Shown here: one piece after another, positions 3,331-53,567 of the stretch
Layout of the letters: each line of letters starts with the position of its first letter
How positions within the stretch are numbered: position 1 is the first letter of the stretch
Assembly (NCBI GenBank): GCA_018694835.1
Contig: JABHOG010000047.1
Span: 34,149 to 98,148, forward strand
DNA length: 64,000 nt
Source: Planctomycetota bacterium
GTDB taxonomy: Bacteria; Planctomycetota; UBA8108; UBA1146
Direction of reading: 5' to 3'
Translations under genes and position numbers: made by a program
Notes under the pieces: model-generated
The model's input: only the letters and a program-made list of their open reading frames with translations
Databases searched by the model: none
What the model was told of the DNA's origin: nothing

Positions 3331-4221
3331 TTACCCGGGCTTGACCTGCGACGGATCGGGGTCCAGCGTAGAGATGGCGGCATCGACGATTCTCAACAAT
3401 CGTCCGCGCGATCTGCGCCCCGTCTCCATCACCTCTTCATGGCTCAGCGGCTGCCCCGACATCCCCGCCGCCAGGTTGGTCACCAGCGAAAACCCTTGCA
3501 CACGAAGACCACAATCCACCGCCACCATCGCCTCCTGGATGGTCGACATGCCGACCAGGTCTGCGCCGAGTTTGCGCAGCATCCGTACCTCCGCAGGGGT
3601 CTCGTAGGTGGGTCCAGGCAGACCTGCGTAATTTCCACGGGGGAAACCATCGGTCGCTCCAGCCTTGGAATCGTTGCGGTAGCACCGCTCGGTTCGATCG
3701 ATCCAGTGCTGGTCGAAGAGACCGGTCTGATTGCGAATCCTCGAAGCGGCCTCGATTCCCATCTTCGGAGTCACCCCCTGCAGGTTGATATGATCCTCGA
3801 TGGCGACCACTTGTCCGGGACTCCAGCCCTCACGGACGCCACCGGCGGCATTGGTCAGGATCAACCCTCGGGCACCAAGAGCTGCGAGCACGCGGATTCC
3901 CCGCACCACCTCTTCCACATCGTATCCCTCATACAGATGAACCCGACCACCGAGCAGAAGTATCGTCGATCCTCCGACCTCGCCGAGGATCCACTCACCC
4001 CCATGCCCGGCCACCGAGGGCGATGGCATCCCGGGAATGTCACCGACCGCGACGCGGCAATATTCGGTCCAGCCATCGGCGGGAAACTGGATCCCCGAAC
4101 CGAGCACGATACCGACATCGGGACCGACCTCGGACCAGTCCTGCAGACCATCGGGTGCCAGTTCGCACCACTGATCGCGAATCCACCGACAAGCCGCCTG
4201 GGCATCGAATCGTTCCGTCAC
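3331..4221 (-). CDS. Purine nucleoside phosphorylase (PNP family 2, PunA/DeoD-II type)
   Basis: VHLYEGY motif, GMSTIQEA and the overall PNP layout. GTG start at 4221 overlaps the upstream gene stop (GTGA), so it is translationally coupled to the nucleotidase-transporter gene. It converges on udp with a 9-bp gap. Confidence 0.8.
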   Translation of the reverse strand: MTERFDAQAACRWIRDQWCELAPDGLQDWSEVGPDVGIVLGSGIQFPADGWTEYCRVAVGDIPGMPSPSVAGHGGEWILGEVGGSTILLLGGRVHLYEGYDVEEVVRGIRVLAALGARGLILTNAAGGVREGWSPGQVVAIEDHINLQGVTPKMGIEAASRIRNQTGLFDQHWIDRTERCYRNDSKAGATDGFPRGNYAGLPGPTYETPAEVRMLRKLGADLVGMSTIQEAMVAVDCGLRVQGFSLVTNLAAGMSGQPLSHEEVMETGRRSRGRLLRIVDAAISTLDPDPSQVKPG

Positions 4222-7052: not shown

Positions 7053-7175
7053 GCCACCTCTATTTCCACCTGGAGAATTGCTGGAGAGGATAGCGGAACA
7101 ATCCACGTCTGGACAGCGGGAGCCCTTGCAACCGCCCCCCCATTTCCTTCATGATCTGAGCAAAGGAGAGTCATC

Positions 7176-12339: not shown

Positions 12340-13644
12340 TCAGGGATTACAGCCGTAGCCATTGGCCTGGTCCGGATCGAGCCCCGCTTCTGGAAATGGT
12401 GTCATCGGCATCGGACCACTTCGGAAGAGGTACGTGACGACGTAGATCGGATCGGCCAGGTCGATCAAACCGTCACCATTGACCTCGGCCGCTTCCAGGC
12501 ATGCCGGTGCGTCTCCGCCAGAAAAGAGGTAATAGGACAGGTACATCGCATCCCCGATGTCGAGCTGACTATCGCCATTGACCACTCCACGGATAAATCC
12601 GTAGGTAAAGGCTCCCGGCAAGGTGGCTTCGCCCAGCGAATTGGCGACACGAACATCGACCGACCCCACTCCATTGATCGATGACGGCAATAGGCCCGTC
12701 ACCGTGTTGTCGTCGACCACGACCAGGCCCAGAAGAGCCACGCCGTCGATGGTGACCTCGGTATCGGACGCCGCGAGAAATCCAGATCCTGTCACCTGTA
12801 CATCGACTCCACCCAGGTAGTGCCCGACTGTCGGAGTGACCCCTTCGGCGGTGACCGGGATGATCGAGGTGTTACAGATGGCGCTGACCACTTCAGGGTT
12901 ACTGACAGGATCGGGAAAGACCACACCCAGCAGAGAGTAAGTGTAGGAACCCGGTGCCAGATCCGCATCGACATACTCGGTTACTCCCGGATCCAGCATG
13001 GCGATCAGATCGCCATCTCGGTGGACCAGTACATAGTCAAAAGGAGTGCATTCGCTCCAGCTGAGGATCGAATCGGAGACTCCACCCTGGCACACCAGGT
13101 CGAGACAGAAGTCCGGTGGCGGAATGATCTGGATGTTAGCGGGCGTCTGATCCGGGGTCAGGCTAGCCCCTCCCGATACGATCACCACATCGACTGCAGG
13201 AGATCCAAGGGTGCCACAGAAAGCGACCTCGGCATCGATGGGCAAGCCCCCGGCAGTGGCCACTCCGGTCAACAGGTAATCGATATCGAGCAGTCCATAA
13301 CCGGTTCCCGGGTCGAGCGAGGCGCTGCCGACGAAGGAGATCACCACTCCAACCGTCAATCCTTCGGGATAGATATTCATCTCGTTGAAGTCTGGAGCGC
13401 CGCCACCATTGATGATGGCGGTGGTGGGACCGTCTTGAGCGGCGGTCAATTCGAGGTTGTCAGTATCGTGACACACCCCCATCGACCACCCCTGTACCAC
13501 GACACTGGAGTCGAGCAGCAGATGCGATTGAATCGCCTCGCCGGTGACACCCGACCCTCCGGTCAAGGAAACTGCGGTCTCTTGCGCACAGATCGATGTG
13601 GCCATGGCCAAACAAAGCAGTGTCACCAAATAATTGAATTTCAT
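12340..13644 (-). CDS. Secreted protein with IPT/TIG-like Ig domain and C-terminal type-I dockerin-like tandem Ca-binding repeats
   Basis: Signal peptide MKFNYLVTLLCLAMATSICA. Two C-terminal repeats, VNGDSQLDIGDAMYLSYYLF and VNGDGLIDLADPIYVVTYLF, fit dockerin (DxNxDGxID...LL.YLL). The same module ends both FG-GAP proteins at 50-53 kb. Confidence 0.7.
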   Translation of the reverse strand: MKFNYLVTLLCLAMATSICAQETAVSLTGGSGVTGEAIQSHLLLDSSVVVQGWSMGVCHDTDNLELTAAQDGPTTAIINGGGAPDFNEMNIYPEGLTVGVVISFVGSASLDPGTGYGLLDIDYLLTGVATAGGLPIDAEVAFCGTLGSPAVDVVIVSGGASLTPDQTPANIQIIPPPDFCLDLVCQGGVSDSILSWSECTPFDYVLVHRDGDLIAMLDPGVTEYVDADLAPGSYTYSLLGVVFPDPVSNPEVVSAICNTSIIPVTAEGVTPTVGHYLGGVDVQVTGSGFLAASDTEVTIDGVALLGLVVVDDNTVTGLLPSSINGVGSVDVRVANSLGEATLPGAFTYGFIRGVVNGDSQLDIGDAMYLSYYLFSGGDAPACLEAAEVNGDGLIDLADPIYVVTYLFRSGPMPMTPFPEAGLDPDQANGYGCNP

Positions 13645-18488: not shown

Positions 18489-18500
18489 GCAAATTCAAAA

Positions 18501-18611
18501 CTGGGCAACGACCTACTCTCGCGGTTTAACCCACTACCATCGGCGTAGAGAACTTAACTACCGTGTTCGGAATGGGAACGGGTGTGACCCCTCCACTATG
18601 GTCACCCAGAA
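18501..18611 (-). rRNA. rrf: 5S ribosomal RNA
   Basis: The minus-strand sequence ...CCCGTTCCCATTCCGAACACGGTAGTTAAG...GAGAGTAGGTCGTTGCCCAG matches conserved 5S loop and helix motifs. The terminal helix pairs CTGGGTGAC with GTTGCCCAG. Ends are approximate (+/- 5 nt). Confidence 0.85.
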
Positions 18612-18786
18612 ATTCTACTCGTGAAGTTGTCGGCTCCGTAAAAACGAATCCGCAACAACACGTAGCGTGATTTTAAATTGGTGGTTGGCCTCAAATATGA
18701 TTGACATGATTCGATATGACTCTGCTCGAGCGTACATTCTCACTCTCTGAATCGAGTAGATGCCCGTGCTCGTGCAAAAGAGAAAT

Positions 18787-21746
<2,960 letters not shown>

Positions 21747-21953
21747 ACTATTTCTCGTTTGCACCGCATTCCCATTACACCACACCCAGATGAAGCCGGG
21801 CCATGACGCAATCGAACGGCGCGCACGGGTCTCCTGTGATCCGGAGATTGCTTATGCGCTCTCGAGTTTTGTCAAATCAAATTAAAATTGCAGAGCATGT
21901 CGCTCATATTTCATTATTGACCAACCACCGAATTTTCAAAGATCGATCACGAA

Positions 21954-22026
21954 TGGAGATGAGGGGGATCGAACCCCTAACCTCTGCCTTGCAAAGGCAG
22001 CGCTCTCCCGATTGAGCTACATCCCC
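21954..22026 (-). tRNA. tRNA-Ala (anticodon TGC) in 16S-23S spacer
   Basis: GGGGATGTAGCTCAATCGGGAGAGCGCTGCCTTTGCAAGGCAGAGGTTAGGGGTTCGATCCCCCTCATCTCCA. The G3:U70 alanine identity pair is present. No CCA encoded. Confidence 0.9.
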
Positions 22027-22099
22027 TCACTAGCAGGTTACAAATCACGTCATGAGAGGTTCTGCCAGGCAGTTCCTCGTCACAAAGGGGTCGAATGAA

Positions 22100-22173
22100 T
22101 GGGCTTAGGTGGATTCGAACCACCGACCTCATCCTTATCAGGGATGCGCTCTAACCAGCTGAGCTATAAGCCC
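22100..22173 (-). tRNA. tRNA-Ile (anticodon GAT) in 16S-23S spacer
   Basis: GGGCTTATAGCTCAGCTGGTTAGAGCGCATCCCTGATAAGGATGAGGTCGGTGGTTCGAATCCACCTAAGCCCA. No CCA encoded. Confidence 0.9.
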
Positions 22174-22303
22174 CTGGTTTCACACGACAGACGTCCTGAG
22201 TGGACCCGTGAGTTGTAACCGGATCTAAAATTGGGCCCGCAACTGAAAGAAAGTCCCCAAGCGTTCCACTAGATGGTCACCCATCGCAGTGGTCCAAGTT
22301 ATC

Positions 22304-23850
<1,547 letters not shown>

Positions 23851-29466: not shown

Positions 29467-30770
29467 AAGTTGTTGTCATCGGTTCCGGTGGACGCGAGCA
29501 CGCCATCTGTCTCCAACTGGCGCGCTCACCGCGAGTCACGGAAGTGATCGCCTGCCCCGGAAATCCGGGCACCGCGCGCCTCGGTCGTTGCTGGAACCAG
29601 ATCGATCCGATCGTTCAGATCGATGCCTTCATCGAGCGCTGTAAATCGGAACAGATTGACCATGTGGTGATCGGCCCTGAAGCGCCGCTGGTCGCCGGAG
29701 TGGCAGACCGCCTCCGTAGTGCTGGGATTGCAGCCTTCGGTCCCGGTGCCGCTGCCGCACGCCTGGAAGGCTCCAAGGCCTACTCGAAGCAGTTCATGGA
29801 TCGACACCAGATCCCCACCGCAATTCATCGCACCATCGACCATATCGACGATCTCGAAGCCGCCCTCGATGCCTTACCCCCGCAAGTAGTGGTGAAAGCC
29901 AGTGGCCTGGCCGCGGGCAAAGGGGTGATCGTGTGCGAGGATCGCCAGCAAGCACGACAGGCTGCCACTGCGATGCTGGTGGAAGGTTCCTTTGGAGAAA
30001 GTGGTCGGGTAGTGGTCCTCGAGGAGAGGATGCATGGTCCAGAAGTGTCGGTTCTGGCCATCGTCGATGGTACCGATGCACTGCTGCTGCCCACGGCTCA
30101 GGACCACAAACCACTTCTCGATGGGAACATCGGCCCCAATACCGGCGGGATGGGGGCCTTTTGTCCTGGCACCGTCATCGGGTCCGGCGACCTCGACACG
30201 ATTCGTAGGACCATCATCGAGCCGACCCTGGAAGGGCTGGTGGCGGATCAGATCGAGTACTCGGGAGTGCTCTACGCCGGGTTGATGATGACAAAATCTG
30301 GTCCACGCGTACTCGAGTATAACTGCCGTCTCGGTGATCCCGAGACACAACCAGTGCTGCTTCGCCTGACCAGCGATTTCGCCGATATTCTCGAAGCCAC
30401 CGCAGACCACTCCCCCTCCTCGGCGTCGGTCACATGGGATCCACGTCCATCCCTGTGCCTGGTCCTCGCTTCCGACGGTTATCCTGCGGCCCCTCGCAAG
30501 GGCCAGGTCATCGAGGGCGAAATCTTCAGTGACGTCGATGACGACATCCAGGTGTTCCATGCGGGCACCACTACTGGGCCGGATGCAACTTGCGTCGTTT
30601 CGGGAGGACGAGTTCTGGGAGTCACGGCACTGGCAGATTCGCTGGAGGATGCGAAACAACGAGTCTACGACAGAGCATCGCAGATTCAGTTTGACGGAAA
30701 AATCTGTCGAGGAGATATTGGCACTTACCAAGAGACCTACAACATCAGTGAGTCGCTGGAACAGCAGTAG
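29463..30770 (+). CDS. purD: Phosphoribosylamine--glycine ligase
   Basis: [14 protein letters not shown] matches the E. coli PurD start MKVLVIGNGGREHA. ATP-grasp motifs follow. GTG after GGAGGA, overlapping the upstream stop as GTGA. Confidence 0.9.
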
Positions 30771-30920
30771 CCCGCAGACTTCACTCGAGAATACCGTGGA
30801 TCATCGATGCGCGTTCGCAGATTTCAGCGCCGCCACCTCGCCACTCCCCCAGCACTGATCCACAAATTCCGACAGGGTTCCGTTGGCTCCTGAAATGCGA
30901 TGGAGGGAGTTCCTGATCAA

Positions 30921-30960
30921 CACCAGATCAATAGGTGCACCAGATCAATAGGTGCACCGG
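30921..30960. repeat. 17-bp tandem direct repeat (caccagatcaataggtg x2.3)
   Basis: Two exact adjacent copies plus a partial third, inside the ~600-bp non-coding stretch after purD. Confidence 0.8.
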
Positions 30961-31387
30961 TTTAAGTCGGAGGCCCGGATCCAGTCGCTCGGAAAAGATA
31001 GACGATCCTGCCCCGACCCCGAGGCACACGCCTCCCCTGCAAACCGCGCGAGTCATTCGTGGCCTGGTGAGTCCGAATCTCCGCTTCGCATTTCGGGCGA
31101 GATTTCAGATTCTTCATCGCCGTCAAAGGTCCATAGAAAAAACTGCCGCATCGGGCGAAAAATAGCCCCCAGCATCGCGAACCGATGGCCAGAATCGAAT
31201 CCAGCATCAATCCGCGGCACCAGCCCCACCGAGTCACTGTGGCCAGATTTCACCCGGATCATCGGAGCCAGTGGCTGCCCCTCCCGGCCTTCCAATCCAC
31301 TCCCCTGGACCCGTTCCAGAACCGCCCGGTTCGCGGCGGTTCGAGCCAGCATCCGATCGCCAGAATCGACCTCCAAATCGAACTCCT

Positions 31388-32335
31388 TCATGAGGACAGT
31401 TTCGACATTTCAATCTTCTGGCTCTCGCACAACCTCTCGACCGTCTTTTGCAGACTACTGAGTTTGGTCGAACGACAGTTGATATCAATCTTGACTGGAC
31501 TCAGATCACTCGAATCCGCAGAGAGCCCCAGCTCACCGTAGAGACTCCTCGATCGATCGTACGACCGCTTGGCGATGGCGTTGATGATCTCGCCCAGATA
31601 CTTCATATCTCGGGAGTGAGGTAGGATCGTCAGCGACCTGGACGCCTCCTTCATCTCAGTTTGCAATTTCCGAATTGGATCTCGCACATCCTTGGTGCAG
31701 AAACTTTGCCAACTCTTGGGATCGAATTTCCCACCCTGCTGGAACCGAGTGGATTCGAGGGATGCACTGCGAGCGTCTTCGAAGATGCGCTGGTACTTCA
31801 ACCCGTCCTTGATCTTCTTCAAGAAAAATTCCTGAGCCTCCAGTCGAGCCTTGTCGATCTCCCGAGCGGAACCCAGATCGAACTTGTTTTTCCAGAAGGA
31901 CTGTTTCCAGGGCGCGGTTTCCACCGGGTACATCGCTGGATTCGCCTCCATCTCCAGTTGCACCTCTCTCGGCTGGCTTTGAGGTCGAATCTCTGAACGT
32001 AATTGAAGATTTGAGATACAGCCCTTCAACCCCTTCAGTTCGATCATCTGGTCGATCCGGCGCGTCCCATCGAGTTCCACATTGAAGGAATAGACGATGG
32101 TGGTACGCCAACGGATTTCGAAACCGATGACAGACTTCGCTGGAAGGGTCGGAGCTTTTCCCACCACTCTCAACTGCCAGACATCTTTCTTCATCGAGGT
32201 CTGAACAGTGATCAGTTCGATGAAGGTAGGAGCAGGCTTGGGTGGACCAGAATCATCCTGTGCGAGCAGTACTTCCCCTTGAAACAACGCCAAAAGCGAC
32301 ATCAATAACAGCCGCGGAATCATGATGGTTTTCAT
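31388..32335 (-). CDS. Secreted hypothetical protein, paralog B of a tandem pair
   Basis: Signal peptide MKTIMIPRLLLMSLLALFQG. Shares architecture and motifs (e.g. TAPWKQSFW vs SAPWTEFHF) with the upstream paralog. ATGA overlap with it. Confidence 0.6.
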   Translation of the reverse strand: MKTIMIPRLLLMSLLALFQGEVLLAQDDSGPPKPAPTFIELITVQTSMKKDVWQLRVVGKAPTLPAKSVIGFEIRWRTTIVYSFNVELDGTRRIDQMIELKGLKGCISNLQLRSEIRPQSQPREVQLEMEANPAMYPVETAPWKQSFWKNKFDLGSAREIDKARLEAQEFFLKKIKDGLKYQRIFEDARSASLESTRFQQGGKFDPKSWQSFCTKDVRDPIRKLQTEMKEASRSLTILPHSRDMKYLGEIINAIAKRSYDRSRSLYGELGLSADSSDLSPVKIDINCRSTKLSSLQKTVERLCESQKIEMSKLSS

Positions 32336-33333
32336 CCTTGATCCTCCTCCTCGGCGGGACCTAGCCCGATCATCTTGTTAATTTTCATCACCAGATCATT
32401 GAGATCTGAACTTCTTGGGATTCGGCGGCCAGAGCGAACCTTGACTTCCAATTTCTCAGGCTTGGTATCACTGCTAGAAGCCGCCAACCCCTGCGCGATA
32501 TACAGTTTCTTCGATTCGACAGTGCTGCGTTTTCCCACCGCCACCGATAGTTCAAGCAGATACGATAGTGCCAGGCGATGCGCCACGAATCGTGGCTCTT
32601 GAAATCCCTTGCGGATCTCCTCCTGCAATTCCACCAACCGCCCGATCACCTTCTTGTCCATGAAGTCTCGCCACTTGTTCTCATCAAACTCGCCCTTGGA
32701 GTTGACGTAATCGGTAGCTGCTTCTACACCCTTGACTCCATTGCGTACCTTTGCGTCGAGGGTAGCCATCTCGGTGTAACGAACTGTGAACCACTCGCGG
32801 GTCTGCCGCAGTGCTACTTCGATCTCTTGTGCCGTGCCAATCACGAACTGGAAATCAAAATGAAACTCTGTCCATGGGGCAGAGATGACCGGAAACAGTT
32901 CCGTTTCCTTCTCCAGTTCCTTCTTGGCCTTACCGCTTTGCTTCTTGGGATCGATCACTGTACGGAACATGTACTTGTCAGCGGTGGGTTCCAGCGCCTT
33001 CAACTTCAGTTCTTCACGGATCCGCTTGTTCGCAGGAACAGTGATGGTGAAGGTCTGGATCAATTGACTGCGCCAGGTCAGCAACAGATCGATCTTGGTT
33101 CCCACCGGAATCTTGGGCGTCTTCGCCTGAATCACGAGGGTGTAGACCTTGCTCTTGTCCAACTTGGTCGCTTCGATCTTGGTGAACTCAAAGAGTCGAA
33201 GATCGGTTCCTCCGGGTCCACGACCCTCACCTTGAGCCTGGGCAAGAGAAGGTAGTAGGGCCAGTGAAAGCACCAGAACCGCTCCGAGGGAGAGTCCCCG
33301 AAGGATCCACTTTGAGCGAACAATATTCATCAT
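32332..33333 (-). CDS. Secreted hypothetical protein, paralog A of a tandem pair
   Basis: Signal peptide LGAVLVLSLALLPSLAQA. A beta-rich N-terminal half and a helical, charged C-terminal half. No recognisable family. Confidence 0.6.
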   Translation of the reverse strand: MMNIVRSKWILRGLSLGAVLVLSLALLPSLAQAQGEGRGPGGTDLRLFEFTKIEATKLDKSKVYTLVIQAKTPKIPVGTKIDLLLTWRSQLIQTFTITVPANKRIREELKLKALEPTADKYMFRTVIDPKKQSGKAKKELEKETELFPVISAPWTEFHFDFQFVIGTAQEIEVALRQTREWFTVRYTEMATLDAKVRNGVKGVEAATDYVNSKGEFDENKWRDFMDKKVIGRLVELQEEIRKGFQEPRFVAHRLALSYLLELSVAVGKRSTVESKKLYIAQGLAASSSDTKPEKLEVKVRSGRRIPRSSDLNDLVMKINKMIGLGPAEEEDQG

Positions 33334-33361
33334 GTCGAACTCTCGATCCTATTCCAAGACA

Positions 33362-36300
33362 TCAGTCGCTCACCTCGGTGAGCAAGTATTCCGCCGACGG
33401 GAGATACACTGAAAGGGTCACATCGTCCAGTGCAGGAGTGACGAGAGCCTTTCCTGCATAGGGTCCCTGGCCAGTCCCCGCTCGCATCCGCAATTCGTAA
33501 CCGAGGAAGCCGATATTGAAGCGATTGACAAAGTCCGGGCTTCCAGTCGGGTAGAGCCAGCGACCCGCGATTTGCAGGTTATTACGCCCTCCCTCTCCCC
33601 GGATACCACCTCCGGGATCCCCCAGTGGTCTTGAACTCTGTTGCCCATCGACGTTGAGAACACTCATCGTCTCGTCGGCCCACTGGACACTTTGTTTGGC
33701 GTACATCTTCGGTGCGTACAGTGTCCATGTCATGTTTCTCAGACGCATCCGCTGAATTCCATCGGGAAACGGCACCATGAATGCGTTGGTGTAGATCCCC
33801 TCCTGATCAGAGTAGTAGCCCTTCTTGCGACTGTCGTCCTGGGTGTATTGCCCGAGGTAGACTCTGAACTCATCGATGGTGGCATTGGCCAGTACGCGCT
33901 TGATCGAAGGGGAGCGAAGTGTGCCCTGGCGGTCGAAGTTGGTGCCAAACTTGAACAGTCCCTCAGTGGACACCGCCTGGTCGCGGTAAAATCCACCCAC
34001 CTGGATCTGATCCTTCGGCTCCTCTTCATTGAGGGCGCAGAACATTCCTTCACCGATGTTGTGATTGACCGCATCCACAGTGGAGTGGTCAACCCAGACA
34101 CGAATTCCGTTGGTGGGAGAGTTATCATCGTACGAGATCGCAAGATGATGCCACTCGTGCGCTCTCCAGTTCTCAATATCCACCACCACATCACTGCGAG
34201 CCCAGTACTTTTGCGGATCGGTTTCCGCTTCATTCCCGGATTCGACTGCATCTTCATTCCCGATGAGTGGGATCGCCTGGGCAGTGAATCCCTTGGCAAA
34301 AGCCTGGTGATAGTAGAGGCGAGAAACTCTCAGTTGTCCTTCCGTGTTCTTCCAGATCCAGAACTGGGATCCTTCCGAATCGGTCGGCTTCTGTCCCACA
34401 TCCGTCTGTACCTGGGTGGCCCCGATCAAACCGGAAAAGGTTGGATCATCGCCGTTGAACTCCAACTTGACCCAGAAGGAGACCGCCCCGTTGTAGTAGG
34501 GCATGTTTCCGATGTCGTTGTTGTAATTCCTGTTGGCGGCGCCCTGATCGGCAGGATTCTGACGATAGCGCTGAGCTGGCAGGCGAAGGAAACGGCCTCC
34601 CAATGCCGAGGTTCGGAAAATGCTGCTGTTGATACCGTCAGGCATCAAATCAGAATTCTGAGAGGCTTCATCGACAAACGGTTCACCGATGTTCTCGTCT
34701 TCGATGGCACTGTCCGCGGCTCCCCAGACTTCCCTGGAATAGCGCTGCTTGTAAATAGAGCCCTTCTGACTGTAGCTCGCATCGAGCACCTTCCCCAACT
34801 CCTTCAACTTGGCCTGAGGGTTGGAAGCGGTACGCAACAAGTTGCCCAGATTCCGAAGAGAAGCCTCGTCTCGAAAACGAAAGGTGTGCGCGAGTCGAAG
34901 AGTGGCGTCTCCCGACCACCGAGCTAATCGAGCCGAAGGTGCTGAAACCTGCATCTGTGCGTCGATGGCACCCGACAATTCGATACGACCATCCTGATGC
35001 GAACCGGTGAAGTGATCTGGATGCAGCGCGTCCAGCGGGTCGGGCCAACTGGTGACATACTCTCGAGCGCCTCCTCGACTGGAACTGGACTTTCCGATCG
35101 CTCGGAATGGACTTTCGAACTGATTTTGAGTGGTGTGATGGTAGACATCGAAGAGTTTCACGATGCTACGACGTTGCGCTTCCGAGAAGACATCGTCACT
35201 CGAATTTCCGCCACCGGTGATCTCCGCAATGCTCGAGATTTCGAAGATTCCCTTGCTGTCAAAACAGAACTCTGTGGTATGCCCCATACGAACGTCACTC
35301 TTGTCGTTTCCTGGAGCAAACTTGACCAGGTTCGACTTGTCGATCGCTCGGTAGGCTGGAGCGTTTGGATTGACCTTGTTGATGCGTGTATTTGGATTGG
35401 CATTGGCAATCACGATCGATCGCATCATGTCGTAGTACCAGGCGTTGACTGCATCGGTCGGCAATGAGACACCATTGCGTGTACCACGCTCCACCTGGGG
35501 GACTCCTGCCACCCACATTCTCGACGAGCCACCGGTACCACCACTGATCTTCTGGATCTGATTATCCGTGGTGGTGGACTGTGGATTGAGCACCCAGACC
35601 GAATCCGCGGATGGGAAAATATCAGAGGGAAGACGATTGATGAAGTCTTCGAATCCGATGTCACCACTACCGAGGGGAGCCACCCAGGTCTTGAAAGCCC
35701 TGACCTTGCGCTGGGAGATGATGGCGAGTGCAATTTTGCGAGCCACATCTACTGTCAGTGGCCGGGAGTAGACCCAGACGGGTGTCTGTTGCAACGACAG
35801 TTCTTCCTTGACCGGAGCCAGGGTTCCTCCACCAAAATCGATCGCCCCCTGGTTACCGCTTTCCAGCGACTGGGAGTTGATACTCATGTAGGGAAACGCA
35901 CGACGTCCTCCCACGCCCATCAATGTGGCGATCAGGACCGGTTCCGATGCGGTATTGATATTGATGGGGGCTCGCGGTTCCCCCACGACCTGGGCAGCCC
36001 CGGTCACCTGCTGATTGCGTGGATCCCGCGGCAAACTGCGATTCACACCGGTGGTTCCAGCAGTGCCGCCATTGTTGGACTGCCCCCCCACTCGATTGAT
36101 CACTTCACGACCGGCACCTGACCTCTGGGTATATGGATTGACCCAGGCATGAGCGGTCACGAAGTCTGCTAGCAGCAACATATTCTCGCGACCGATCAGA
36201 GCGGCTAGTTCCGACTTGGAGGAGAACTTGCCACCGGGTAGTCGATTGCGAAAGACAATCAACTCCTCGCCGTTGAGTTGCTTTCCCGACTCATTGGGAC

Positions 36301-36925
36301 CACTCCACAGTGGATTCACTCCGTAACGAACATCCGACTTGAGGGCCATCCCCAGGTTAGTCAGCATCTGCGCCAGCGTATCTTGCTCACCATTGAGAAA
36401 TATCTGAGAAGAAGTGTCGATCAGTTTGATTCGGAAACGATCCTTGCCGTCCTGACTTCCTGCAACTCCCGGATATGAGCCACGAGTCAGTTGATCCCCG
36501 AGGGATGTCTCATCCGGTTCCGCTTCGCGCAGGTCCAGTACTCCACCGATTCGTGAACGACCGTCCCCTCCGGTGATCCCGTAAATCCAGGGAGAACGAG
36601 AGCTATCGTTCCGCACGTGCCCCTCCCAGAAAGGTCGGCTTCGAAGCATCGAGATCACCTCGGACTCCGCCGAGGATGAGAGCAGGAACGCCTTGTTTTG
36701 ATCGCGGAAATTTTCCGTCGCCTTCAGCTCCAGGCGCATCAGGGCGACAAAGGTCACCGCGATGATGGAGAGCAGAGTGAGAACCGCCAGCGCGATCAGC
36801 AGCATCGTGCCACGTTCACGGCCATTCGCTTGAACAGGAATCGAATTCACAGTTTCTAAATTCACAGAATCCTGCTCCTGTCGTAAACTCGATGTCTTCA
36901 GAGCGAGGCTCTTGGTTGGAAACAT
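33362..36925 (-). CDS. Giant (about 1190 aa) GspK-like minor-pseudopilin-type secreted protein
   Basis: The N-terminus RERGTMLLIALAVLTLLSIIAVTFVALMRLELKATENFRDQNKAFLLSSSAESEV follows the T2SS GspK pattern (RG + hydrophobic helix + polar helix). A very large extracellular region follows. ATG at 36925 (M14) is preceded by an A/G-rich RBS. The upstream ATG at 36964 is the alternative. Confidence 0.6.
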   Translation of the reverse strand: MFPTKSLALKTSSLRQEQDSVNLETVNSIPVQANGRERGTMLLIALAVLTLLSIIAVTFVALMRLELKATENFRDQNKAFLLSSSAESEVISMLRSRPFWEGHVRNDSSRSPWIYGITGGDGRSRIGGVLDLREAEPDETSLGDQLTRGSYPGVAGSQDGKDRFRIKLIDTSSQIFLNGEQDTLAQMLTNLGMALKSDVRYGVNPLWSGPNESGKQLNGEELIVFRNRLPGGKFSSKSELAALIGRENMLLLADFVTAHAWVNPYTQRSGAGREVINRVGGQSNNGGTAGTTGVNRSLPRDPRNQQVTGAAQVVGEPRAPININTASEPVLIATLMGVGGRRAFPYMSINSQSLESGNQGAIDFGGGTLAPVKEELSLQQTPVWVYSRPLTVDVARKIALAIISQRKVRAFKTWVAPLGSGDIGFEDFINRLPSDIFPSADSVWVLNPQSTTTDNQIQKISGGTGGSSRMWVAGVPQVERGTRNGVSLPTDAVNAWYYDMMRSIVIANANPNTRINKVNPNAPAYRAIDKSNLVKFAPGNDKSDVRMGHTTEFCFDSKGIFEISSIAEITGGGNSSDDVFSEAQRRSIVKLFDVYHHTTQNQFESPFRAIGKSSSSRGGAREYVTSWPDPLDALHPDHFTGSHQDGRIELSGAIDAQMQVSAPSARLARWSGDATLRLAHTFRFRDEASLRNLGNLLRTASNPQAKLKELGKVLDASYSQKGSIYKQRYSREVWGAADSAIEDENIGEPFVDEASQNSDLMPDGINSSIFRTSALGGRFLRLPAQRYRQNPADQGAANRNYNNDIGNMPYYNGAVSFWVKLEFNGDDPTFSGLIGATQVQTDVGQKPTDSEGSQFWIWKNTEGQLRVSRLYYHQAFAKGFTAQAIPLIGNEDAVESGNEAETDPQKYWARSDVVVDIENWRAHEWHHLAISYDDNSPTNGIRVWVDHSTVDAVNHNIGEGMFCALNEEEPKDQIQVGGFYRDQAVSTEGLFKFGTNFDRQGTLRSPSIKRVLANATIDEFRVYLGQYTQDDSRKKGYYSDQEGIYTNAFMVPFPDGIQRMRLRNMTWTLYAPKMYAKQSVQWADETMSVLNVDGQQSSRPLGDPGGGIRGEGGRNNLQIAGRWLYPTGSPDFVNRFNIGFLGYELRMRAGTGQGPYAGKALVTPALDDVTLSVYLPSAEYLLTEVSD

Positions 36926-37019
36926 CGTTTCCCTTTCCCTACTCTTCGTTCCACTCCATGTCATGCGTCACGACGACGCATCCGAGACTCTCCAGTGCAC
37001 CCGTTCCGCACCACCGCTT

Positions 37020-38204
37020 CTAGGCTTCGACCGGATCAGCGGTATCGACCGGATCGGCAGTATCTGCGGTATCGGCGGTATCGGCGGTGTCGATGGTAGC
37101 AAACGGAGTTGTCGCCGCCGCCGGGCCATCCCCGAAAAATCTCTGACGAAGTTCGGCGTCGAGGCGGCTTGTCAGTTCCGGATGATCACGCAGGAACTGG
37201 ACGGCTCGCTCTCGACCCTGACCGATCCGCTCCTTGCCCATCGAGTACCAGGTTCCCGCTCGACTCACCAGACCTTCTTCCACCCCGAGATCGACCAGTT
37301 CTCCGTGGTACGAGATCCCCACGTTGAACACGATATCAAATTCGGCCCTGCGGAAGGGTGGGGCCATCTTATTCTTGACGACCTTGACAACGGTTCTGTT
37401 CCCACTGATATCGCCATCGGTCTTGATGGCGCCAATCCGGCGAATATCGAGACGAACCGACGAGTAAAACTTCAACGCCCTGCCACCGGAGGTGGTCTCA
37501 GGACTGCCAAACATGACACCGATTTTTTCACGAATCTGGTTGATGAAGACCACCGTGGTTTTGGAACGGTGGATGACTCCGGTCAACTTGCGCAACGCCT
37601 GACTCATCAAGCGCGCCTGCAAACCGACATGAACATCTCCCATCGATCCTTCCAACTCGGCACGTGGAACCAGTGCGGCCACCGAGTCGATGACCACGAT
37701 ATCCACCGCGCTCGAGGCGACCAGCATCTCGGCGATCTCGAGAGCCTGCTCGCCGCTATCGGGCTGTGAAACCAGCAAGTGATCGAGGTCCACTCCTAAT
37801 TTCTCGGCATAGGTGGGATCGAGCGCATGTTCGGCATCGATGAACGCCGCCACACCACCATTTTTCTGAGCATTGGCGATAGCGTGCAGGGTCAGCGTGG
37901 TTTTTCCGGAGGACTCCGGTCCGTACACCTCGACCACACGGGAACGGGGCAATCCACCGATTCCCAGCGCCTTGTCGAGGGACAGTGATCCGGTATGGAT
38001 CACGTCGACTCTTCTCGACTCCTGATCCCCGAGCATCATGATCGATCCCTGGCCACATTTCTTGTGAATCTGCTGCAGGGCGAAATCGAGCGCTTGCTTG
38101 CGCTGTGCGTCGAGCCCCTTCAACGAATCGGTCAGTGAAGACTCAGGCGCTGCTGCCGACTTCTTGGTTGCGGAAGCGCGTGCTTTTCTCGGTTTGTCTA
38201 CCAT
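37020..38204 (-). CDS. recA: Recombinase RecA with extended acidic (TAD)n C-terminal tail
   Basis: Walker [19 protein letters not shown], the L1/L2 regions and [16 protein letters not shown] at 38204 after GGAGGA. The C-terminus [24 protein letters not shown] is encoded by 9-bp tandem repeats. Confidence 0.9.
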
Positions 38205-38315
38205 CTCGTTCCTCCATCCTCGCCCGGGGTTCCGGCGATCACCGGTGGGCGTCATTCCCCCTGGAATTTTTATTGCCAGTGGTTCGTTTCATATCCATCA
38301 GTTCCATTTTCCGAT

Positions 38316-38795
38316 TCAAGAGGCCCCTGCCTCTTCATCGGTATTACCTGTTCGATTTTCTTCAGTTCGAGTTTTTCTGCTTCCAAGTTGATCGCGTGCG
38401 GAGTCCATCACTCGTGGCCGACCGAGAATTCTCTGGCGACCGTACTCTTTTTCGACCAAAGCCCCGTCTCGCCCCCGCTCGAGCATTCGCTGGCGCGCCT
38501 GATCCACTGCCGAACCGGAGTTCCAGGGGATTTGCTGGAGCAGGTAAAGTTGCTGGTCGGACAATTGACCAGAACGAGCTCGCAGCCATTGCACCTGAGC
38601 CCTGGCATGTTGCGCTGGAGAAACTGGAGCGGCTCGGGAGGATCCCGACGTAAATCTCGAAGATGCAGAAGGAACTGCAGAAGAGAACATCGATCGATCG
38701 GAGGATGCGGAGCATCCGACCACCCCATGAGCAAGGATGGAGAACAGTAGCAGGGTGATGGCACCGGAAACGGTGCGCTTCCTCTCACTTCTCAT
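38316..38795 (-). CDS. Hypothetical lipoprotein
   Basis: MRSERKRTVSGAITLLLFSILAHGVVGC looks like a lipoprotein signal with a VVGC lipobox. ATG at 38795 after GGGAG. Low-complexity S/A-rich mature region. Confidence 0.45.
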   Translation of the reverse strand: MRSERKRTVSGAITLLLFSILAHGVVGCSASSDRSMFSSAVPSASSRFTSGSSRAAPVSPAQHARAQVQWLRARSGQLSDQQLYLLQQIPWNSGSAVDQARQRMLERGRDGALVEKEYGRQRILGRPRVMDSARDQLGSRKTRTEENRTGNTDEEAGAS

Positions 38796-50094: not shown

Positions 50095-51519
50095 TTACAG
50101 GCAGGAATCTCCTGAATCTTCGCACTCGAGCGCATCATCGGTCGGATCCTGACCGCACGAGCCGACCGGCTCCGGCAGTGGCGGGGCCCCGCTGAAGAGA
50201 ACCGCCAGCAAGGTCACCGCATCGGAGATGTTGATCCCCCCATCATCGTTGGTGTCGGCGGCATCCAGACAACCCGGGGTGAACCCATTGTTGAAGAGGT
50301 AAGCGAGCAGGAACACGGCATCGGCGATGTTGGTGTTGCCATCGCCGTTGAGTTCGCCGCGCCTGAAGGTTCCGATCACAGTCAGATTCAGGTAGTAGGA
50401 GACGGTCGACTGGTCGTAGTTGCCGACAACGATGTCGAGACTTCCATCCTCATTCACATCCACCAGTTCCAGCCCAGAGAAGGCCACCGATCCGTCGAGG
50501 GTCCACACATCCAGGAATTCCAAGGCCCCGATACCCTGCAGGATGAGAAACCCGCCGGAGGCGAAGTTTCTGATCACCAGGTCGGTGATGCCATCGAGGT
50601 CGAGATCCCCACCGGCAACATGGCGCTGATTGTTTCCGGTGAAGATCGGGATCCCGGCCTGGGGAATCCCGGCATTCAGCGTGAAGATTCCAAGGTTACC
50701 CAGCCCCTCCTCGATCGACACGATCTCGGGAAGTCCGCCATCAAGGTCGATGGCCAGCGTCGACCAGTGAGACTCGGTCAGCCCGCCGATCTCGCGTTCC
50801 TCGGCGGAGAAGGTCCTGCTCCCCTGGTAGAGGCTGGTCGCAACCCCACCTCCGCTGCCGGCGTTGAAACCGCAGCACAGGTCGAGGTCGCCATCGCCAT
50901 CGAGATCGGCGATATCGAAGCTGAGTGGATATCCCGTCAGCAGGATCGACGACAGACCGTCAAACGCTGCCAGCGGATCATCGATTCCTGTCCCCCATGC
51001 CACCTGTAACCGCGAACCGAACAATTCGACGGCGATCACATCGAGGTGCCCATCATCGTCGATATCGGCGAGTTGTACCTGCGGATTTCCGCCTCCCCAG
51101 CCGGGCACCAACCTCGGCTGTTCGCTGAAGGTTCCGTCGCCGTTTCCTTCCATGTAGGCAAATTGGCCGCTCAGGAAATCGGTCACGACCGCATCGATGA
51201 CTCCATCCTCGTTGATGTCGCCGAAATCGATCGCCCAGGGCCAGTTGATGGAGATCGCGTTGAAGACGGGGGCATCGAAATTACCGCTGCCATCGCCGAG
51301 AGCGACGAACATCCCCGAAGTGAGTGCCGGCTCCCCCTGCAAGGCGATGATGTCGAGGTGGCCATCGGAATCGACGTCCGCCATCTTGACGGCATTGACC
51401 TTGTCCGCCATCACGACCGATACGGGCGGGGCAAATTCGATGGCAGCCTGCTGAGATTGGCCAGTTGCGGGCAATAGCGCCGCCGTCAGTAGGGCGAAAA
51501 GTGTGTATCGAACGCTCAT
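50095..51519 (-). CDS. Secreted FG-GAP/VCBS-repeat beta-propeller protein with C-terminal dockerin-like module
   Basis: Signal peptide MSVRYTLFALLTAALLPATG. Repeated DxDGDGxxD loops (DVDSDGHLDII, DIDDDGHLDVI, DLDGDGDLDL). C-terminal LNGDGNTNIADAVFLLAYLF and TNDDGGINISDAVTLLAVLF, then CGQDPTDDALEC. ATG after GGGAGG. Confidence 0.75.
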   Translation of the reverse strand: MSVRYTLFALLTAALLPATGQSQQAAIEFAPPVSVVMADKVNAVKMADVDSDGHLDIIALQGEPALTSGMFVALGDGSGNFDAPVFNAISINWPWAIDFGDINEDGVIDAVVTDFLSGQFAYMEGNGDGTFSEQPRLVPGWGGGNPQVQLADIDDDGHLDVIAVELFGSRLQVAWGTGIDDPLAAFDGLSSILLTGYPLSFDIADLDGDGDLDLCCGFNAGSGGGVATSLYQGSRTFSAEEREIGGLTESHWSTLAIDLDGGLPEIVSIEEGLGNLGIFTLNAGIPQAGIPIFTGNNQRHVAGGDLDLDGITDLVIRNFASGGFLILQGIGALEFLDVWTLDGSVAFSGLELVDVNEDGSLDIVVGNYDQSTVSYYLNLTVIGTFRRGELNGDGNTNIADAVFLLAYLFNNGFTPGCLDAADTNDDGGINISDAVTLLAVLFSGAPPLPEPVGSCGQDPTDDALECEDSGDSCL

Positions 51520-51934
51520 GAGGCCTCCCCCGCCATTGTCGCACGATTCATCGCTCAAGTCCTTCGTCATGCCCTACCCAGGAAGATAGGTGATCGAATG
51601 ACAATTGCCAACAGCACACAGGTAGGGAATCGTCAGAGCGGAATCCACAACTCATCGCTCCTTGCCAGGTCTGGCAGCACTCAGACCGTCGCTGGTCGCC
51701 ATTTCACCCAGCCGTAGTGGACCGATACTGACGGTGGCTACGGCCTGGTCATCTCTGCGACGGGCTCTCTTCCCACTCTTCCATCGTGAGCCAGCTTTCA
51801 CGCAGTTTGGCACCGTGGAAGAGACCGAGAATCGTCTGGTCCCTCATCGCATCCATCCGTCTCGACGCACGGATATCGCCGATGACGAGCAGCCGTTCGC
51901 CGCCCATCCGGCACGGGATGAAGGGCGGAGCCGA

Positions 51935-53446
51935 TTACGGGCAGATTCCGAAACTGACGCACTCGAGCGGATCCCCGGTCGGATCCACTCCGCAGCCTGG
52001 AAACGGCGCCGGCGGATTGAGCCCGGCGCTGAAGAGATAGGCGAGCAGGTAGATGACGTCTCCCACATCGATCGATCCGTCGTCGTTGACGTCGCTGGCG
52101 TCTTGACAGACCGGAGTGGCTCCCCCAACAAAGATGTAAGCGAGCAGGAACACCGCATCGGCCACCGAGATGGAATCGTCATCATTGCACTCGCCGCGAC
52201 TGAAACTCTGACAAACATCGAGGATCCCATCGACATTCTGATCGGTGGTGGCAGAAAGTTGGCAGCTATCTGGCACCCCGTCTCCGTCACAGTCACCGAT
52301 TCCGTTGTCGATATCACACTCATCCGGAATCCCATTCTGATTGCAGTCGGGCCCGCCGTACTGGTTGAGGTAGATCTGATCGGGAACGCTGAGATTCCCC
52401 ACCACCAGATCGAGGTCCTCGTCACCGTCGAGGTCTCCCAGGGCCACGGCTCGGCTGCTCGATGATCCAAGAAGCTGGCCACGGCCCGAAAAGGTACCAC
52501 TTCCATCGTTGGCGAAGATTCGATCGGGTTGATTCAGGTTTCCGCAGATGAGATCGAGGTCGTCATCGGCATCGATGTCGCCACTGGTCAGCGCGAGAGT
52601 GTTGGAGGAGCCGAGCCGCTGGCCACTGTCCAGAAAGGAACCGGTTCCATCGTTGAGATAGACCAGGTTCGGCTGACCGAAGTAATTGGCCACCGCCAGG
52701 TCGAGGTCGCCATCGGAGTCGAGGTCTGCCAGCACCACTTCGACGCTGGAGTTGCTTCCGAGTGCCTGAGCGGTATACGAGAAGTTGCCGTTACCATCAT
52801 TGAGATAGACTCGATTGGGTTGGTCGAGGTAATTCCCGACCACCAGATCGAGGTCGCCATCGGCATCGATGTCTCCCAGTGCCACACTGTAGCTGAAACT
52901 GAAACCCAGCGACTGGCCGGTGTCGGCGAAGAAGCCGTCCCCGCCGTTGCGATAGAGCTGATTGGGTTGGCCGTCGACATTGCCGACCACCATGTCGAGA
53001 TCGCCATCGGAGTCGAGATCCCCGAGAGCCACCGAGAAGGTCAGATCAGAGCCCTGCGCCTGACCGCTATCGGTGAAGAGGGCGTCTCCGTCATTGAAAT
53101 AGATCCGGTTGGGTTGGCCACTATTGCCGACCACCAGATCGAGGTCGCCGTCGGAGTCGAGATCGCCGAGTGTCACGGAACCGCTATCACCGCTGGCCAG
53201 TGCCTGGCCACTGTCGAGGAGGATTCCGTCCCCTACATTGAGGAAGATGAGATTGCCTTCACCCCAGTTCGCGATCACCAGATCGAGATCTCCATCCGCA
53301 TCGAGATCTCCCAGGGCCACCGACTGGGTATTGCCCGACGAGAGCGCCTGCCCACTCTCGATGAAGGTGCCACTGAGTGCACAGGGGTCAACTTGCCCCG
53401 AAAGGGTCGAGCCCATCGAGACCAAACAGAACAGCCAGAACCGCAT
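51935..53446 (-). CDS. Secreted FG-GAP repeat protein (7+ integrin-alpha-type repeats) with C-terminal dockerin-like module
   Basis: Signal peptide MRFWLFCLVSMGS. Very regular repeats (ALGDLDxDGDLDLVVGN...PNxxYxNDGxGxF). A Cys-rich Ca-binding-like segment (CNQNGIPDECDIDNGIGDCDGDGVPDSC). C-terminal CNDDDSISVADAVFLLAYIF and VNDDGSIDVGDVIYLLAYLF, then CGVDPTGDPLEC. Confidence 0.75.
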   Translation of the reverse strand: MRFWLFCLVSMGSTLSGQVDPCALSGTFIESGQALSSGNTQSVALGDLDADGDLDLVIANWGEGNLIFLNVGDGILLDSGQALASGDSGSVTLGDLDSDGDLDLVVGNSGQPNRIYFNDGDALFTDSGQAQGSDLTFSVALGDLDSDGDLDMVVGNVDGQPNQLYRNGGDGFFADTGQSLGFSFSYSVALGDIDADGDLDLVVGNYLDQPNRVYLNDGNGNFSYTAQALGSNSSVEVVLADLDSDGDLDLAVANYFGQPNLVYLNDGTGSFLDSGQRLGSSNTLALTSGDIDADDDLDLICGNLNQPDRIFANDGSGTFSGRGQLLGSSSSRAVALGDLDGDEDLDLVVGNLSVPDQIYLNQYGGPDCNQNGIPDECDIDNGIGDCDGDGVPDSCQLSATTDQNVDGILDVCQSFSRGECNDDDSISVADAVFLLAYIFVGGATPVCQDASDVNDDGSIDVGDVIYLLAYLFSAGLNPPAPFPGCGVDPTGDPLECVSFGICP

Positions 53447-53567
53447 CGCCGACACACCTCTTGTTTCAGAGTACGCGAGCACGCACTCGCTGAAATCGGG
53501 AACTCTTGAAGGAGATTCTCCACCGAATTATTCCGCAATCCCACTTCGGGGTCAGGGGATAAAGGTG

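Follow-up and report, generated by a model that had tools for sequence, protein, structure and literature searches.

The stretch of DNA analyzed here, a 64-kb window on contig JABHOG010000047.1, comes from the chromosome of a marine Planctomycetota lineage that has not been cultured, and carries an rRNA operon and housekeeping genes. On its minus strand, downstream of recA, lie a gene for a very large protein (hereafter, the giant protein), genes for two paralogous exported proteins (partner proteins A and B) and a short fourth gene. The large gene probably codes for a minor (pseudo)pilin of the GspK/PilK class with a modular build; we show that its product has a prepilin-type N-terminus and a complete GspK-like fold, to which a lectin-type module is joined. 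The explanation that we prefer, and that we hold to be probable by a small measure, is that the giant protein is a minor pilin at the tip of a filament, where it displays a lectin-like head and has the partner proteins docked on it. That the cassette has an adhesin or fiber-tip role is a reasonable inference.

Orthologs with 44-97% identity keep the same gene order (giant, A, B) in dozens of metagenome-assembled genomes (MAGs) of Planctomycetota, and all three are real genes. Proteins with 97% identity to the giant protein occur in MAGs labelled Planctomycetota.

Assignment of the giant protein to the GspK class

An earlier note on this sequence had recognized a GspK-type N-terminus in the giant protein, and this claim is borne out by profile searches and by the processing motif. 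RLELKATENFRDQNKAFLL is found in the protein. The NCBIfam model for GspK of type II secretion (T2SS_GspK, NF037980) matches residues 50-109 over profile positions 1-60 of 307, with an E-value of 2.6e-8 and 33.8 bits. We also used a profile of the N-terminal ~620 residues, built from 68 members, to search twelve Gsp proteins of E. coli K-12 and all other open reading frames (ORFs) of the window. This profile picks exactly the five pseudopilins of E. coli at E < 0.05, with GspK as the best, and is aligned with residues 2-100 of E. coli GspK (~100 amino acids).

In an N-terminal alignment of 26 homologs, conservation starts at R-x-R-G↓[STA]-M-L-[LI]-[IV]-A-L, whose glycine is Gly39 in the 1187-residue form of the giant protein. 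The leaders upstream of R-x-R-G are variable in length and content and are unconserved. As in GspK, the family has no Glu at position +5, where Ile or Ala is found instead, and the giant protein has no match to the N_methyl model of Pfam (IPR012902/PF07963); its N-terminus is of the GspK subtype. The helix that follows, alpha-1, consists of a hydrophobic segment for the membrane and filament core and then a polar part (RLELKATENF...). In addition, positions 1-19 of the 63 in the Pfam T2SSK model match a P-I-N-I-N-T-A motif in 23 of the 26 family members, all but one below threshold; the exception is P0034, a distant member of the family, with 24.5 bits (cut-off 24.2).

The gene and the parts of its product are as follows.

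33362..36964, minus strand: gene for the giant GspK-class modular minor (pseudo)pilin; maximal ORF, 1200 amino acids from the first ATG
36806..36820, minus strand: class III (prepilin-type) processing motif R-E-R-G↓T, with Gly39 at -1, from the translation and the family alignment
36641..36808, minus strand: long N-terminal alpha-1 helix, residues 40-95 (H40-95 by DSSP on the AlphaFold2 model)
35126..36640, minus strand: GspK-like globular region, residues ~96-600; pilin beta-sheet and inserted helical domain
35906..35968, minus strand: PININTASEPVLIATLMGVGG, helix-hairpin-helix motif P-I-N-I-N-T-A at the start of the Pfam T2SSK model
34526..35125, minus strand: variable, mostly helical middle, residues ~601-800; predicted local distance difference test (pLDDT) mostly below 50
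33440..34525, minus strand: all-beta C-terminal module, residues ~801-1162, containing a jelly roll of concanavalin A (ConA)-like/LamG/pentraxin type
33374..33439, minus strand: extreme C-terminal signature TPALDDVTLSVYLPSAEYLLTE, with the family motif [ST]P[VI][LF]DD[VI]T[LV]x[YF] in the last ~25 residues

The earlier note was right that this ORF exists, but its length is 1187 residues from the ATG at 36925, not 1190. Because the leader before R-x-R-G is unconserved, the true start may be the GTG at 36865 or the GTG at 36850 instead of either ATG. The start of the gene is therefore uncertain, and the ATG at 36925 and these two GTG codons are all plausible candidates.

Domain architecture and the C-terminal motif

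The evidence that decides the assignment is structural. We modeled the giant protein with AlphaFold2 from a 26-sequence alignment (predicted template-modeling score, pTM, 0.72; mean pLDDT 68.7); the domain boundaries in this model are approximate. The earlier note had seen no recognizable domain beyond the N-terminus, which is refuted by the globular GspK fold with its P-I-N-I-N-T-A motif (residues ~96-600) and by the ConA-like jelly roll. The pilin beta-sheet and the inserted alpha-domain, which together characterize the three-dimensional fold of GspK, are both present. In distant members of the family, the middle of the protein (residues ~601-800) gives poor matches or has been replaced.

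The C-terminal ~390 residues (~801-1187) form an all-beta module that includes the LamG/pentraxin-type ConA-like jelly roll, and Foldseek matches this jelly roll to the Hc region of botulinum neurotoxin (BoNT Hc), neurexin and galectin. Laminin_G_3 of Pfam is found in 7 of 26 orthologs, and it is the sole Pfam match to fragments of the giant protein, at an E-value of 0.28; the whole protein yields merely a spurious match to Anthrone_oxy (E 0.21). The ligand of the jelly roll would most probably be a glycan. Like the modular type IV pilins, the giant protein combines a pilin module with a module that is not specific to pilus biology.

The extreme C-terminal motif is kept in nearly all relatives, which range from 776 to 1706 residues and include Omnitrophota proteins at ~25% identity, and AlphaFold2 places a long strand (E1165-1183) at this end of the giant protein. 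Both the GspK-like N-terminal blocks and the C-terminal motif persist where the middle is unrelated, as at loci L076 (~490 unmatched residues) and L056 (~980).

The partner proteins

The genes that accompany the giant gene, and its upstream neighbor, are as follows.

32332..33333, minus strand: partner protein A, 333 amino acids
31388..32335, minus strand: partner protein B, 315 amino acids, paralog of A
31053..31391, minus strand: fourth cassette gene, 112 amino acids, no signal peptide
37020..38255, minus strand: recA, upstream neighbor on the same strand, given as context and not shown to belong to the unit

The stop codon of the giant gene is separated from the start of A by 28 nucleotides (nt), while A and B overlap by 4 nt, as do B and the fourth gene. 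The earlier note had described a cassette of three genes, but there are actually four; the 112-residue gene is conserved in closer relatives. Its product carries the motif GLVPRIDAGxDSGHRFAMLGAIFRPMRQF, which across these relatives reads GLVPRIDxGLDxGHRFxxLGxIFRPxxxF, and has no Pfam match. The gene is kept in 19 distinct sequences, and it was detected only where the giant protein of the locus shares at least ~68% identity with that of the window.

Proteins A and B are paralogous, as had been proposed: BLASTP aligns them with 27% identity over 244 residues (E 6e-34), and the motifs quoted in support are all present, SAPWTEFHF and AASSSD in A and TAPWKQSFW and SADSSD in B. The suggestion that they belong to no known family likewise stands. 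Neither has a match in Pfam, the family has no relative in Pfam, NCBIfam or the PDB (a search of the PDB with the family profile gave noise, at E of at least 0.056), and neither protein resembles PapD-like chaperone, usher or OmpA domains. The family is also rare, with only 164 clusters at E <= 0.001 when 1.84 billion representative proteins were searched exhaustively with a profile; 7 of 51 sampled members have an added TIG domain.

Both partners begin with a hydrophobic segment that ends in an invariant A-Q and that has neither a conserved Gly nor a lipobox Cys, which indicates that they are probably exported by Sec and cleaved by signal peptidase I. The predicted Sec signal peptide of A lies at about nt 33235-33333, with probable cleavage at AQA↓QGEG, and that of B at about nt 32261-32335, with probable cleavage at LLA↓QDD. 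The mature N-termini are conserved, as QGEGRGPxGxDLRLxEF in A and as (D/E)DSGPPKPPPTF(I/V)ELT in B (in B itself, DDSGPPKPxPTFIEL). In an AlphaFold2 model of A (pLDDT 84, pTM 0.74), a low-confidence N-terminal tail of the mature protein precedes an immunoglobulin (Ig)-like sandwich of six to seven strands (residues 49-127), a bundle of three long helices (168-280) and, at the C-terminus, a short helix. We considered whether A or B might donate a strand in trans in the manner of PilY1, and rejected this idea on the grounds that the extreme C-termini of the partners are unconserved.

These N-terminal features bear on a rival explanation, in which the giant protein tips a secretion-competent (pseudo)pilus and A and B are dedicated substrates that are released to the medium, as in the TcpB/TcpF pair. 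In its favor, the partners have Sec signal peptides and a mature N-terminus that is conserved and flexible and contains an aromatic residue (QGEGRGPxGxDLRLFEF; DDSGPPKPPPTFIEL). The partners are encoded right after the minor pilin, as tcpF and cofJ are in their pilus operons, and TcpF too has an Ig-like domain and lacks structural relatives (PMC9565799). However, A and B have no likeness to TcpF or CofJ in sequence or structure, and TcpB and CofB form type IVb trimers, whereas GspK-class pilins act in heterotrimers of the GspIJK type. We regard release of the partners as decidedly improbable, although this explanation overlaps our preferred one and differs from it only in the partners' fate.

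Conservation of the giant-partner pairing

The giant protein has 34 homologs, all in Planctomycetota MAGs. For the analysis of gene neighborhoods, we assembled 75 genome loci with giant relatives and six further loci by exact protein look-up, and ran profiles for the partner family, recA and purD against the ORFs of these loci. Enough downstream sequence was available at 64 loci. At 51 of these, a gene of the partner family directly adjoins the giant-like gene on the same strand, and 31 have two such genes; recA is upstream at 26 of the 64.

The extent of the conserved order depends on relatedness. All relatives with at least 44% identity, except for L001/L034, have the order recA, giant, A, B, (small gene), purD. 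Relatives at 33-37% identity have recA, the giant gene and a single partner (L006, L036, L040 and L044), and those at 25-30% have a giant gene and a partner without recA (e.g., L054, L065, L078, L080 and L081). Because the pairing persists at 25-30% identity without recA, the association of giant and partner is older and more robust than the adjacency to recA. Moreover, since deeper relatives carry a single partner, A and B are the products of a recent duplication of one ancestral partner.

Several further observations on the family were made in these loci. Some genomes have several giant paralogs, namely OFTM393 (L048, L057 and L060), OFTM357 (L005 and L059) and NC_groundwater_805 (L058, L064 and L069), and two giant-like genes can occur in one locus, either in tandem (L062 and L075) or convergently (L055). 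Genes for Ser/Thr protein kinases flank distant giant-like genes at L005 (= L072) and L066, one of them fused to an FGE-sulfatase domain, and a CHASE2-adenylate/guanylate cyclase is encoded near the giant-like gene of L051; such neighbors may reflect a link to signaling. The chromosome of Candidatus Uabimicrobium amorphum, a phagocytosis-like planctomycete, has an 886-residue member of the giant family (L074; 6784930-6797598), with a partner-family gene ~800 nt away on the opposite strand. Finally, three loci from bins labelled Bacillota (L010) or Proteobacteria (L039 and L043) have the Planctomycetota-type order recA, giant, A, B, purD, with giant proteins 47-82% identical to that of the window; these bins are probably mislabelled or contaminated.

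Proposed mechanism and filament context

In the mechanism that we propose, the giant protein would enter the inner membrane through alpha-1, and prepilin peptidase would cleave it after Gly39. Like GspK, PilK and CpaL, it would then cap and prime a type IV filament, either a pilus or a T2SS-type pseudopilus, with the filament machinery and the other pilins presumably encoded elsewhere in the genome. The filament tip would thus present the lectin-like module as a head that binds a ligand, most probably a glycan. We propose that the extreme C-terminal strand ([ST]PxLDD[VI]T[LV]) folds back on the pilin-like core, as a C-terminal strand does in cis in GspK and CpaL, so that the variable middle and the lectin module would form the displayed payload. 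Proteins A and B, as predicted Sec-exported proteins of the periplasm or surface, would dock on the giant protein, possibly via their conserved flexible mature N-termini, and would travel with it as tip-associated accessory subunits or cargo.

The giant superfamily is anchored in genuine type IV filament systems, because a 908-residue homolog in Omnitrophota (L076) sits in an operon with the order GspE, GspF, three classical prepilin genes, the homolog, a HEAT-repeat protein and a PilM/PilN fusion. A PilM-like neighbor is also present at L078.

It is important to emphasize that a number of observations weigh against the preferred explanation. With regard to class, the giant protein misses the curated cut-offs of every GspK model: its 33.8 bits compare with a cut-off of 130 bits for NCBIfam T2SS_GspK, and it gives no match to Pfam T2SSK (PF03934; gathering threshold 24.2 bits), even as fragments. 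When the giant-family alignment was searched as a profile against all PDB chains, there was no match at E <= 1. (Comparison of this alignment with the single sequence of E. coli K-12 GspK by hhalign gave a probability of 5%, which is uninformative for a template without alignment depth.) With regard to function, LamG-type domains bind proteins as well as glycans. With regard to the partners, their interaction with the giant protein is suggested by gene adjacency only, and a detectable partner is missing at 13 of the 64 evaluable loci. One lineage, L001, which is the same as L034 (JBJXGE010000058.1), has kept recA, the giant gene and purD but has lost both partner genes, and only ~450 nt and a 77-residue ORF remain in their place. 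Distant partners were assigned with an iterated profile, which may have drifted, although their consistent adjacency on the same strand provides independent support.

Further points of this kind concern the filament itself. Neither a major pilin nor a GspH/I/J-like pilin is encoded in the 64-kb window, and the same holds for an ATPase, a platform protein, a secretin and a prepilin peptidase. Pfam searches of twenty other ORFs of the window found no GspD/E/F/L/M/O or PilM/N/O/Q domains, and no other window ORF has a pilin-like N-terminus. The earlier note's observation that GspD, GspE, GspF and GspG are absent is therefore confirmed, by Pfam and by profile scans, but its description of the cassette as an orphan holds for the window only. 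A scan for classical prepilin motifs beside distant relatives was positive only at L076 in Omnitrophota and found none beside Planctomycetota relatives; the Pfam domains encoded around four of the latter are kinases, a cyclase, or nothing.

Such neighborhoods raise the possibility that the giant protein is a membrane-anchored envelope protein and no filament subunit, that its GspK-like N-terminus serves only as an inner-membrane anchor or export signal, and that it acts with its exported partners, and without any type IV filament machine, as a stand-alone lectin-type receptor of the periplasm or surface. The giant and partner genes lie away from genes for pilins or machinery in the window and at nearly all Planctomycetota loci examined, the neighbors of distant loci are Ser/Thr kinases or cyclases instead of pilus genes, and the occurrence of multiple giant-like paralogs in several genomes (OFTM393, OFTM357 and NC_groundwater_805) would also suit a receptor. 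What is conserved, however, is the full GspK fold rather than a hydrophobic helix, together with the Gly(-1) motif and the polar half of alpha-1, which mediates filament packing. The relative in Omnitrophota, moreover, fills the GspK slot in its GspE-GspF-pilin-PilM/N operon. It is also common in type IV filament systems for minor-pilin genes to lie apart from the machinery. We consider a stand-alone receptor unlikely.

The adjacency to recA

The earlier note correctly placed recA directly upstream on the same strand, and the gap between the end of recA and the giant ATG at 36925 is 94 nt. However, functional coupling does not follow from this adjacency. In the recA-linked lineage the whole neighborhood is syntenic, with HU, DegT, cupin and recA genes upstream and purD, UbiA, RseP, dxr and lgt downstream, and the recA genes of the syntenic loci encode the Pfam domains RecA_N and RecA_C. 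Because the entire neighborhood is syntenic and deeper pairs of giant and partner lack recA, the adjacency is lineage-specific synteny and does not count as evidence that the genes are functionally coupled. Between the recA stop codon and the Gly(-1) codon lie 208 nt in the window and 110 to 579 nt over 28 loci (median ~222). For these three reasons, i.e., synteny, deeper pairs without recA and the variable spacer, we rejected recA as a functional partner. A scan of positions 30700-38500 for sigma-70 promoters and intrinsic terminators found none on the minus strand and fewer sites than in shuffled sequences, and is uninformative on whether recA is co-transcribed with the giant gene.

If recA were a part of the system, the giant protein might be the tip of a DNA-uptake (competence) pilus, whose helix-hairpin-helix motifs bind extracellular DNA and with which recA is co-expressed for natural transformation. 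Apart from the position of recA on the same strand at 26 of 64 loci, with no terminator-like hairpin detected in between, such a role could draw on weak matches to HHH_3 (ComEA-type) in 5 of 26 members and on the precedent of large minor pilins such as ComZ, which are reported to act as DNA receptors (PMC6561018). Against it, synteny of the whole neighborhood makes the adjacency functionally little informative, deeper relatives retain giant and partner without recA, and the spacer of 110-579 nt leaves room for a promoter of the giant gene's own. The helix-hairpin-helix motif is intrinsic to every GspK (Pfam T2SSK), and the added module is lectin-like rather than a known DNA-binding fold. A competence pilus is therefore very improbable as an explanation.

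Two details of recA itself may be recorded. The RecA protein ends in a short acidic repeat tail (37020-37090, minus strand), and the recA ORF as called has an N-terminal extension of ~60 residues beyond the RecA core.

Other features of the window

A complete rRNA operon (16S, tRNA-Ile, tRNA-Ala, 23S and 5S) at 18500-23849 on the minus strand is usable for phylogenetic placement. A 962-residue ORF at 4218-7106 (minus strand) fuses a 5'-nucleotidase (Metallophos and 5_nucleotid_C) to a complete concentrative nucleoside transporter (Nucleos_tra2_N, Gate and Nucleos_tra2_C), and looks like a one-polypeptide system that would dephosphorylate nucleotides and then import the nucleosides. Dockerin type I domains occur in three secreted-looking proteins, at 12340-13644, 50095-51570 and 51935-53482 (all minus strand), one of which also has TIG while the other two have FG-GAP repeats.

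Significance

The giant protein belongs to an unannotated superfamily of very large GspK-class tip pilins, which is found mainly in Planctomycetota (~75 genome loci) and in a few Omnitrophota. Its members combine a swappable payload, here the LamG-type lectin module, with a near-universal C-terminal strand motif. It is largely the contents of the tip that give type IV filaments their functions. If the proposed roles hold, microbial ecologists would have in the giant protein a specific candidate for the means by which abundant marine Planctomycetes take hold of glycans or surfaces, and the protein would be a further natural example of the CpaL/GspK architecture, in which a C-terminal strand closes a core pilin domain that bears a variable payload. 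The partner family was previously undescribed and is tied to the giant superfamily. The findings as a whole are useful for type IV filament biology and Planctomycetota ecology. L001/L034 offers a natural partner-less case.

A broader conjecture is that the giant protein makes up a self-contained tip module together with its exported partner or partners, and that this module is widespread in Planctomycetota, with its genes lying apart from those for the filament machinery. The partners would stand in for the classical accessory subunits of the tip (PilY1-like or even GspI/J-like), while polysaccharide would be captured by the lectin head. We think it distinctly unlikely that all of this is correct. 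If it were, the module would be a molecular candidate for the pilus-like fibers of two cultured Planctomycetes, which are reported to bind dextran (PMC5394234); any link between these species and the giant family is speculative.

Comparison with known systems

Relative to GspK/XcpX (PDB 3CI0 chain K and 5VTM chain X; NF037980; PF03934), the giant protein is 3.5 times larger. It adds a variable region of ~200 residues, a lectin-type module of ~390 residues and a distinct conserved C-terminal motif. Its gene is not beside gspG-H-I-J or the GspC-O machinery in the window, and a Sec-exported partner family is found there instead.

Within the PVC superphylum, the giant protein resembles Verru_Chthon cassette protein A (TIGR02600), a protein of ~1300 residues from Verrucomicrobia/Chthoniobacter, in being a giant with a GspK-type N-terminus. 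This model matches the giant protein over its positions 1-58 of 1296, with an E-value of 3e-4 and 18.7 bits, against a cut-off of 332. The Verru_Chthon cassette has partners B-D, as described in TIGRFAMs, rather than the Sec-exported family described here. Our literature search turned up no study of giant GspK-like proteins in Planctomycetota, nor one of the Verru_Chthon cassette.

A similar plan is seen in CpaL/TadG of Tad pili, PilK-PilC/PilY1 and MshP-MshQ, where a large, minor-pilin-like protein of the tip starts with a pilin-like domain, continues with a dispensable or variable middle and ends in an extreme C-terminal beta-strand that is critical for function; for the giant protein, the fold-back of this strand in cis is only inferred. 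In CpaL and, in compact form, in GspK, the N-terminal pilin-like domain has its sheet completed by the extreme C-terminal strand, and the middle can be dispensed with; C-terminal strands acting in cis or in trans are described in GspK, CpaL and PilY1 (Ellison et al. 2026, PMC13533445). Large non-pilin partners are encoded next to the PilK homologs treated there, as next to the giant protein. No homology of the giant protein to CpaL, PilY1 or MshQ was detected, and it has no C-terminal PilY1 beta-propeller.

The pairs TcpB-TcpF of Vibrio cholerae and CofB-CofJ of enterotoxigenic E. coli (ETEC) also consist of a large tip minor pilin and a Sec-exported soluble protein from the same operon. TcpF docks on TcpB via its N-terminus, and CofJ likewise on CofB (PMC9565799, PMC6048534). 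Like TcpF and CofJ, the partners described here have a conserved flexible mature N-terminus and an Ig-like domain, and otherwise no relatives. Unlike TcpB and CofB, which are type IVb trimers, the giant protein is of GspK type, and its partners resemble TcpF and CofJ in neither sequence nor fold.

The principle of design is shared with the modular type IV pilins, in which a pilin module bears a second, bulky module that binds a ligand and is displayed on the filament. The use of ConA-like modules in such pilins is documented and widespread: in Streptococcus sanguinis, PilC has a ConA-like lectin module and PilB a vWA module, and few payloads are commoner than ConA-like/PF13385 modules (Raynaud et al. 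2021, PMC8179133). Such pilins have the canonical N-methylation motif (IPR012902) and a small pilin module, whereas the carrier in the giant protein is a full GspK-class tip pilin, its lectin module has diverged too far for Pfam to recognize, and genes for dedicated partners lie alongside. We regard the giant protein with its partners as a variation on a known pilus-tip adhesin design rather than a new kind of system, and one that fits within current concepts without overturning any of them.

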